This document shows positions 34,634 to 35,953 of a DNA stretch of 64,000 nucleotides, piece after piece; within the stretch, counting starts at the first letter, position 1, and every line of letters starts with the position of its first letter. The DNA is from Escherichia coli. GTDB taxonomy: Bacteria > Pseudomonadota > Gammaproteobacteria > Enterobacterales > Enterobacteriaceae. The notes under the pieces were generated by a model, which was not told the origin of the DNA, did not search any database, and saw only the letters and a list, made by a program, of their open reading frames with translations. The position numbers and the translations under genes were made by a program. The stretch lies in NCBI RefSeq assembly GCF_045037415.1, contig NZ_CP173438.1. The stretch is one strand, 5' to 3'.

Positions 34634-35953
34634 ATGGCAATATTGATAACCCAGGACAGGCAAGTCGCAAACCTGACTCCCCCTGAAGGAAAAAGTCGGA
34701 TAACCGTCAGCGTCAAATCAAAAGTAGGTTCCGGCCTGTCTGTCGAATCCCGTTCCGGGAGTCAAACGAAGAGCTGGATTTACCGCCCTTACCTCAACGG
34801 AAAACAGATTAAAATAACGTTAGGCTCCTACCCTGCAATGACATTGTCTCAGGCGCGTGAAGCACATGCAGACGCGCTGGCGCTGGTTAAACAAGGTATT
34901 GATCCGCGTTATGCGCGAAAAACGGAAAAACAGCAAAATGAACAAATGCCGATTTTTTCACAATTATGAAAAAACTGGCTGGCATTCCGTGAAACCAATA
35001 AACCCATTGGGGCGCGTACTCTGGCTGATTATGAGGGAACATATCGCCGCCATCTGGAGAAAGGTTTAGGTTCAGTACGCGTCTGCGACCTGTCCAGAGC
35101 CTACATTTATGAACATCTCATACGGATCAGAAAGACCAGCGCCGAAGGTGTCCGCAAGGGACTTATTCTTCTCAATATGACGCTTGACCATGCCGCTTTG
35201 CAGGGATTGATCGATCACAACCCTGCTCGCTTGCTTAAACCCGCAATGTTTGGTGCCTCAATGGGAAAACCGCGTGAGCGTTGGTTGCCACAAGACGAGT
35301 TGCAAATGTTATGGAAGGCACTGGATGAAGCGGGGTTCGGCGGCGGATCTGTCGCAACCGGAGGGCGAGGCATCGCGTCCAGCGTTATTCTTTCACAAGC
35401 GATTGCTAACGCATTACGCCTCATCATCCTGACGGGGGTGCGACGTTCCGAAGCGGTGAATATGCGTTGGGAGCAGATTAATGGCAACCGCTGGACAATA
35501 CCTGAAACCAAAAACGGTAAAAGTCATATCGTGACGCTACATCCTCTGGCGCTTTCTCTATTGAAGACTCAGCGCATTATTTCAGAAGGCGGCTGGGTAT
35601 TCGAGTCGCTCAGTAAGCCAAGTTTTCCTGTCACCGGTGACGCAATAACTCGTGCTCTTGAACGCCTGAAAACAAAATATATGGCAGAAGTCGCTCCTTT
35701 CTCACCACATGATTTACGCCGCAGCATTGCTACAGGCTGCGCTGAATATCTGGACGCACCAGAACGGCTTATAGAACTTCTGTTAAATCATGTGCCCAAA
35801 GACAGGTTAATCAGAACCTACCAGGTCGGGCAGCAAGCGGAAAAATTACGGAATCTGTTTCTGAAATGGGGGGATTTTATTGAGCATGAGATCATTGAGT
35901 CTGATAATGGTACTCCAGATAATGTTATTCAGATCAGCTTTGGAAAGAGATAG
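34634..35953 (+). pseudogene. P4-family tyrosine integrase interrupted by an in-frame TGA (codon at 34967-34969)
   Basis: N-terminus MAILITQDRQVANLTP... and C-terminal catalytic region (HDLRRSIATG...) in one frame across two ORFs (34622..34969, 35177..35953) separated only by a TGA. Confidence 0.7.

Follow-up and report, generated by a model that had tools for sequence, protein, structure and literature searches.

Organization of the GI-thrW locus

The window, a 64,000-nucleotide stretch of Escherichia coli DNA, contains an island bounded by two copies of the 3' end of the tRNA gene thrW, with an interrupted integrase gene at one end and the intact tRNA gene at the other. By its sequence and site, the element is GI-thrW of E. 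coli EC958 and the ST131 clone, with which it shares both the insertion site, thrW between proA and yagU, and the type I restriction-modification (R-M) system EcoMIII. The published descriptions of GI-thrW present it as a 10.8-kb island of EC958 in which a type I R-M system is encoded (Totsika et al. 2011, PMC3203889), report its conservation across ST131 (Forde et al. 2014, PMC4134206), and name the R-M system EcoMIII (Forde et al. 2015, PMC4659465). The passages on the island in these papers (PMC3203889, PMC4134206, and PMC4659465) make no mention of an integrase lesion or of its ancestral codon. Cargo annotation was taken from the near-identical genome of a strain designated O25b:H4 (L001; offset +20299), to which the window island is identical throughout apart from two changes in hsdS. 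The locus comprises the following features.

34209 to 34407, plus strand: int'B, C-terminal remnant of a different, lambdoid-type integrase, in the chromosomal backbone
34422 to 34466, minus strand: orphan copy of the 3' 45 nt of thrW, the int-proximal att core, identical to 46011-46055
34598 to 34618, plus strand: tandem CAAGTACGC repeat (34598-34606 and 34610-34618), putative Int arm-type sites or int operator
34634 to 35953, plus strand: integrase pseudogene, 439 codons plus stop, with P4-like architecture; "internal stop" according to PGAP
34634 to 34966, plus strand: residual N-terminal open reading frame (ORF) of 111 codons with a complete Arm-DNA-bind_3 domain (residues 8-97)
34967 to 34969, plus strand: in-frame TGA, codon 112; ancestral codon TGG (Trp112), from the alignment and the DNA codons in loci L005, L017, and L019
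35177 to 35953, plus strand: longest possible restart product, 258 aa, from the ORF list
35954 to 36116, no strand: spacer of 163 nt between the integrase stop and the cargo
36118 to 37807, minus strand: AbiEii toxin (36118-37038) and AbiEi antitoxin (37025-37807), from the L001 annotation
38091 to 44834, plus strand: type I R-M operon EcoMIII, with hsdR (38091-41189), hsdM (41183-42820), and hsdS (42810-44834)
43079 to 43854, no strand: IS1 insertion within hsdS, 768 bp plus an 8-bp target duplication (GAAGGTTA), absent from L001
45041 to 45996, plus strand: tRNA-proximal end, with an ash-family fragment (45041-45199), a hypothetical gene (45177-45647), and int'A (45793-45996)
46011 to 46086, minus strand: intact tRNA-Thr(CGU) gene thrW, the 3' 45 nt of which form the tRNA-proximal att core; adjoins proA

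The thrW repeats at the two island ends are identical over 45 bp and 94% identical over 63 bp, and the 45-bp repeat (34422-34466 and 46011-46055) marks integration at a tRNA 3' end, as is typical of P4-type integrases. The orphan copy lies 168 nt upstream of the integrase start, and its placement relative to int, put at about 210 nt upstream, is the same in all 9 related loci read. Between the two, 16-36 nt upstream of the ATG, is the CAAGTACGC pair with a 12-bp spacing; exact AAGTACGC occurs just twice in the 64-kb window, both times in this int-proximal pair. The spacer that separates the integrase gene from the cargo was matched neither by the relatives read nor by the strains that carry the cargo only.

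The window copy of GI-thrW differs from those of reference ST131 strains by an extra IS1 and a +1 frameshift in hsdS. Relative to the reference ST131 O25b:H4 sequence, hsdS is thus doubly disrupted, by IS1 and by an A8-to-A9 frame shift at about 44496-44505, the latter of which could be a homopolymer sequencing error; the IS1 junction had no single matching piece in the 5,426 complete E. coli genomes. The remnants int'B and int'A are 75% to 81% identical to each other, and each adjoins the CCA end of a thrW copy. The former is found in the backbone of more than 2,000 empty-site genomes and the latter inside the island, and both look like traces of earlier prophages at the same tRNA site. The flanking backbone also holds small relics in the PGAP annotation, namely an ORF of 120 bp labeled "tail fiber assembly protein," located between ykgJ and yagU (window about 32993-33112; L001 12694-12813), and a frameshifted ykgL (window about 24460-24685; L001 4161-4386).

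The integrase gene and its internal stop

The integrase frame opens with the ATG at 34634, which is preceded 7 nt upstream by GAGG and has an equivalent start Met in every homologue, and closes with the TAG at 35951-35953. The TGA at codon 112, in the context ...PIFSQL-stop-KNWLAFRE..., is its sole lesion, and PGAP/RefSeq labels the gene [quoted passage not shown] The earlier note on this DNA had given the coordinates, the frame of about 440 codons, and the stop context correctly, had proposed that a single nonsense substitution was the only lesion of an island integrase, and is borne out in each respect: the rest of the frame and the catalytic residues are intact, and the gene sits at the end of a tRNA-associated island.

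Searches of the product against Pfam recovered an N-terminal Arm-DNA-bind_3 domain (PF13356; residues 8-97, E = 3e-17, 63 bits, cut-off 27), a weak match to the central domain PF22022 (residues 108-203, 18 bits, under its cut-off), and the catalytic domain Phage_integrase (PF00589; residues 258-389, E = 6.6e-16, 59 bits, cut-off 27.1). The catalytic PF00589 domain together with the R-K-H-R-H/W-Y residues places the product among the tyrosine recombinases, and the succession of PF13356, central, and catalytic domains in 439 aa, within the range of about 400-440 aa, is that of P4-type (DUF4102-type) integrases. A search of NCBIfam returned a generic integrase-domain model alone, far under its cut-off, and matches in a simple scan for sigma-70 promoters and terminators around the gene were no more numerous than in shuffled sequence.

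The stop falls between the arm-binding and central domains, right after the former, and deprives the island of the intact integrase ORF that a self-mobile element would carry. The first in-frame start codon past the TGA, at 35177, is 70 codons downstream; the 258-aa ORF that begins there keeps the catalytic domain with its R-K-H-R-H-Y residues, but all of the arm-binding domain is missing from it, as is the greater part of the central domain.

Homologues and the ancestral codon

With the stop masked, the product matched intact proteins of 439-440 aa across 100% of its length at 79% to 91% identity, the closest being from Pectobacterium araliae (91% identity, E = 2e-268). Homologues in Raoultella, Klebsiella, and Salmonella Braenderup are 85% to 89% identical, and an intact E. 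coli homologue with 79% identity was found on hundreds of contigs. The best integrases in the phage database were at most 27% identical, with no close phage relative among them. Because single 439-aa homologues span both halves of the frame, a chance joining of two unrelated genes is ruled out, and the earlier caveat that the halves might belong to unrelated genes falls away.

The alignment with intact integrases that had been suggested as a check identifies Trp, encoded by TGG, as the ancestral state of codon 112. In the 24-sequence alignment, Trp stands opposite the stop in 19 of the 23 homologues, and the remaining 4, which are the most distant (61% to 64% identity), have Phe or Tyr. The DNA of three of the genes, from Salmonella, Klebsiella, and Pectobacterium, reads TTG TGG GAA where the window reads TTA TGA AAA. 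As intact homologues have a TGG-encoded Trp at this position, the lesion is TGG(Trp112) to TGA, a G-to-A change at 34969. Of the two ancestral codons proposed earlier, TGG is thereby supported by both the alignment and the three genes, whereas GAA belongs to the next codon, for which it is the ancestral state and which reads AAA in the window.

Apart from the stop, the gene is well preserved. The residues R270, K293, H359, R362, H386, and Y396 lie in columns invariant across the 24 sequences, all family-invariant columns are retained, and there are only three conservative replacements at positions invariant among the other 23 sequences. The dN/dS ratio against intact relatives is 0.03-0.05 in both halves, which, together with the retained columns, indicates that inactivation was recent compared with the divergence of the gene and that purifying selection acted on it until recently.

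Distribution of the stop codon among E. coli genomes

A 71-bp probe centered on the TGA was matched to the complete E. coli genomes, of which 519 carry the stretch, 518 of them with 100% identity; in the single exception, EC15, the difference lies at 34944 and the TGA is unaltered. At 99.9% identity there are three genomes, which differ at 34944, 35471, and 35516, again with the TGA kept in each, and the TGG allele of this gene was found in none of the complete E. coli genomes. The window is of the ST131 type: EC958-type O25b:H4 genomes match its integrase region (34300-36100) with 100% identity, and the gene of SE15 is likewise 100% identical, TGA included. SE15 is placed in a clade discrete from EC958 within ST131 in the phylogeny of that clone (PMC4134206), so the mutation predates the split between the two. 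Since the TGA is common to every carrier genome, the Trp112 stop is older than the divergence of SE15, EC958, and the other carriers and has been inherited clonally since.

The same data bear on the reading of the stop as a sequencing or assembly error in a genome that really encodes an intact integrase. Single-base errors do occur as a general matter, and hsdS in the same window shows the A8/A9 homopolymer difference; the integrase change, however, is a substitution rather than a homopolymer indel, and the TGA with its 71-bp context is shared by 518 of 519 genomes that were sequenced independently, in many laboratories and on many platforms. We therefore regard an error as excluded, its likelihood being close to nil, and the earlier reservation that the codon might not be TGA in the real genome is answered by its constancy across the 519 carriers.

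Related islands, P4, and CP4-6

Loci with an intact integrase share an int/att module that consists of the 45-bp thrW core upstream, the tandem CAAGTACGC pair, and then int; the pair, with its 12-bp spacing and its position 16-36 nt ahead of the ATG, is conserved in the E. coli, Salmonella, Klebsiella, and Pectobacterium relatives. The ST131 island has this module in common with its intact sister islands, and in all of them variable anti-phage cargo lies downstream of int, as follows for the sister islands (identity of the integrase, then cargo).

E. coli E308: 79%; Zorya, type I R-M, and a UvrD-like helicase
Salmonella Braenderup: 85%; an Eco57I-type gene
Klebsiella grimontii: 86%; TIR and Cap4 nuclease
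Pectobacterium araliae: 91%; SIR2/STALD and ThsB-TIR (Thoeris-like)

The sister islands have intact int genes, whereas that of the ST131 island is broken. As the loci of the intact homologues share both the int/att module and defence cargo, the pseudogene belongs to a family of defence islands that target thrW, of which it is the recombinase module. In the E308 island, of which both ends were seen, the order is proA, thrW, 26 kb of island, int, and the orphan thrW copy. It has a CAAGTACGC pair at both ends (L014 4924-4944 and 30691-30711), the second pair lying at a distance of 57-77 nt from the CCA end of thrW, in keeping with P4 attP, where arm repeats flank the core on both sides. Near thrW it also has an AlpA-like HTH gene; AlpA-family genes are found nearby in Salmonella and Pectobacterium as well. 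In the ST131 island, by contrast, a single end bears the pair and an AlpA-like gene is absent.

In BLASTP comparison with P4 Int, the product is 24% identical over residues 9-417 (E = 2e-14). Like the ST131 integrase, P4 Int is 439 aa long, has an arm-binding domain followed by central and catalytic domains, and targets a tRNA 3' end; in both, some 150-170 nt separate the att core from the int start downstream of it, and tandem direct repeats occupy this interval. The earlier designation of the gene as P4-type is thus apt at the level of architecture, given the equal length of P4 Int and its alignment with the product from end to end, and the 24% identity marks a distant kinship. The tandem CAAGTACGC repeats probably serve as arm-type sites for Int or as an operator of int, a reading suggested by their conservation and by the parallel with the arm repeats of P4 attP.

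P4 differs from the ST131 island in its target, leuX rather than thrW, and in the orientation of the core relative to int, which is opposite in the ST131 island, so that the integrase gene comes to lie at the island end far from the intact tRNA. In P4 at leuX, as in CP4-57 at ssrA, int adjoins the intact tRNA gene in the same orientation. That layout is not seen here, where the gene occupies the far end of the island and is divergent from the orphan thrW copy. This position is a difference of layout and not of protein family, and is shared with IntF and with all the sister islands. IntF of the K-12 cryptic prophage CP4-6 also targets thrW and is encoded distally with its 5' end toward the orphan thrW 3' copy, and differs in being 22% identical, 466 aa long, and intact in K-12.

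At the loci with the E308-type integrase (L008-L010, 9791-9870), ARAGORN predicts an aberrant 80-nt tRNA-Thr(CGU) with its anticodon at position 38, which spans the orphan thrW copy and island DNA upstream of int and is probably a pseudo-tRNA made by the att junction.

Empty sites and retention of the island

The predicted excision product (34150-34466 joined to 46056-46350) was matched to the complete E. coli genomes and is present with 100% identity in four: S4, S12, ST131 isolate 42, and FCI29. Long flanks were compared for S4 and isolate 42. S4 has no mismatch to the window in 18.3 kb of left flank and 17.9 kb of right flank, counted from the junction, and isolate 42 has none over 18.3 kb and about 13.6 kb of flank; the two are therefore close relatives that underwent a precise loss inside the 45-bp core. 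Island-free ST131 strains are also on record, namely S115 (PMC4659465), and NA101 and NA112 (PMC5654935). Given the precise empty sites and these published strains, GI-thrW can still be lost cleanly. Retention is nevertheless very high, with 519 carriers against 4 exact empty sites among the complete genomes. With the two copies of the 45-bp core identical to each other, Int-mediated excision and RecA recombination would leave the same product.

At its tRNA-proximal end, the ST131 island looks non-canonical. An exact-match search of the 64-kb window found no CAAGTACGC pair at this end, which is occupied by the lambdoid integrase remnant int'A, and a Pfam search of the island for an AlpA or HTH_17 gene gave only the Ash fragment at the tRNA end. 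The ST131 island thus does not have putative arm-type sites on both sides of the core or the AlpA/Xis/Vis factor that would go with self-mobility. From the lack of the pair at the tRNA end and of an AlpA-like gene, it follows that the stop codon is probably not the sole block, and if the CAAGTACGC repeats are Int sites, repair of the TGA would probably not restore excision. The earlier proposal that a dead integrase fixes the island in place therefore holds in part: near-fixation is evident from the 519 carriers and the lesion is real, but the four precise empty sites speak against strict immobility, and the state of the tRNA end and the missing AlpA-like gene speak against the stop as the only cause.

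Whereas 519 genomes have the integrase gene, 801 have the tRNA-proximal module (44850-46010), and in ETEC6334 and strain 98222 the block 36117-46010 lies at thrW without it. Homology of these two strains with the window stops exactly at the AbiEii stop. The pattern fits a fusion of an integrase stub with a resident defence module, and it also fits deletion of the integrase end in the ETEC6334 and 98222 lineages, in both of which a truncated gene abuts the breakpoint, a point in favor of deletion. As there is a single breakpoint (36117) and it lies beside a truncated gene, deletion explains the data equally well, and a chimera of an integrase stub and an unrelated resident defence module is not put forward as a firm claim. 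In strain 98222 (L022 10719-17099), a 3.2-kb reverse-transcriptase gene replaces hsdRMS between the same AbiE and ash/hypothetical flanks, which looks like swapping of defence genes between conserved flanks at thrW.

Interpretation of the interrupted integrase

The explanation that we favor, with high confidence, is that the locus represents the decayed recombination module of GI-thrW, in which the integrase has suffered a single TGG(Trp112)-to-TGA nonsense mutation. Translation would end right after the N-terminal arm-type DNA-binding domain, and the core-binding and catalytic domains, otherwise intact, would not be made at a normal level; loss of integrase activity is what such a truncation predicts. 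The mutation arose before the carriers diverged and has been passed on clonally, and the island, with its AbiE and type I R-M genes, is therefore kept by vertical descent, as a part of the chromosome that is close to fixed and not as a self-mobile element. The simplest explanation of the rare precise losses, and the mechanism we infer for them, would be homologous recombination in which the two thrW repeats, identical over 45 bp, pair with each other.

An alternative that we consider unlikely is that the integrase is attenuated and not dead, Trp-tRNATrp misreading the UGA to yield wild-type Int at roughly 0.1-1% and hence rare precise excisions. The ancestral residue is Trp, so read-through would restore the exact wild-type protein, the rest of the gene is intact, and the empty sites are precise, exactly at the core. 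The stop is followed by A, a context that reportedly favors read-through, UGA context being the subject of work ascribed to Engelberg-Kulka (1981). Read-through of UGA in E. coli has been put at 1e-3 to 1e-2, with Trp-tRNATrp competing with RF2 (PMC10570021), and because UGA can be misread as Trp, "dead" may mean strongly attenuated rather than null. Yet there is no sign of programmed recoding and no RNA structure 3' of the stop: the predicted folding of the 81 nt that start at 34960 does not surpass that of shuffled sequences (z = +0.55). The tRNA-proximal arm, moreover, has no putative Int sites and the island no excisionase gene, so that even full-strength Int may not excise it, and RecA-dependent recombination between the 45-63-bp repeats would give the same empty sites. 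That TGG-to-TGA was a strong down-mutation and not a knock-out is, in our estimate, improbable, as is the related reading in which the free 111-aa fragment is kept and occupies the CAAGTACGC sites. If the integrase were attenuated, it would endow the island with a rare stochastic capacity for excision, which could explain the few empty thrW sites of ST131.

Programmed recoding with selenocysteine, or a deliberately split gene with two functional halves, seems to us very unlikely. The 111-aa arm-binding fragment could, for example, be a regulator or a dominant-negative blocker of related integrases at thrW, and the N-terminal ORF does possess a complete arm-binding domain, its own start with the Shine-Dalgarno-like GAGG, and the conserved tandem CAAGTACGC putative sites in its promoter region. 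The homologues, however, are single 439-aa proteins with Trp rather than Cys or Sec; the first start of the C-terminal half lies so far downstream that most of the central domain is lost; and selection on one half or the other could not be discerned from 519 sequences so nearly identical. As to recoding in particular, the homologues have Trp, Phe, or Tyr at this position and no SECIS-like hairpin is present. Selenocysteine insertion and programmed read-through are ruled out by the Trp of the homologues and the lack of structure downstream.

Significance

On the preferred reading of a decayed recombination module, this is the ordinary gene decay of an island integrase. The pseudogene itself was already known, being flagged in RefSeq in hundreds of genomes of a heavily studied clone, and decay of the integrase is, by textbook accounts, how islands at tRNA genes turn into stable parts of the chromosome; beyond bookkeeping, the lesion matters little. 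Added here are the ancestral codon, identified from the homologues as Trp TGG, and the finding that the lesion is common to every carrier genome, SE15 and EC958 included. The occasional precise loss of GI-thrW is relevant to any use of the island, or of the methyltransferase EcoMIII, as a marker of ST131. Also added is the Int/att module, which defines a family of thrW-targeting islands that carry differing anti-phage systems in several genera of Enterobacterales.
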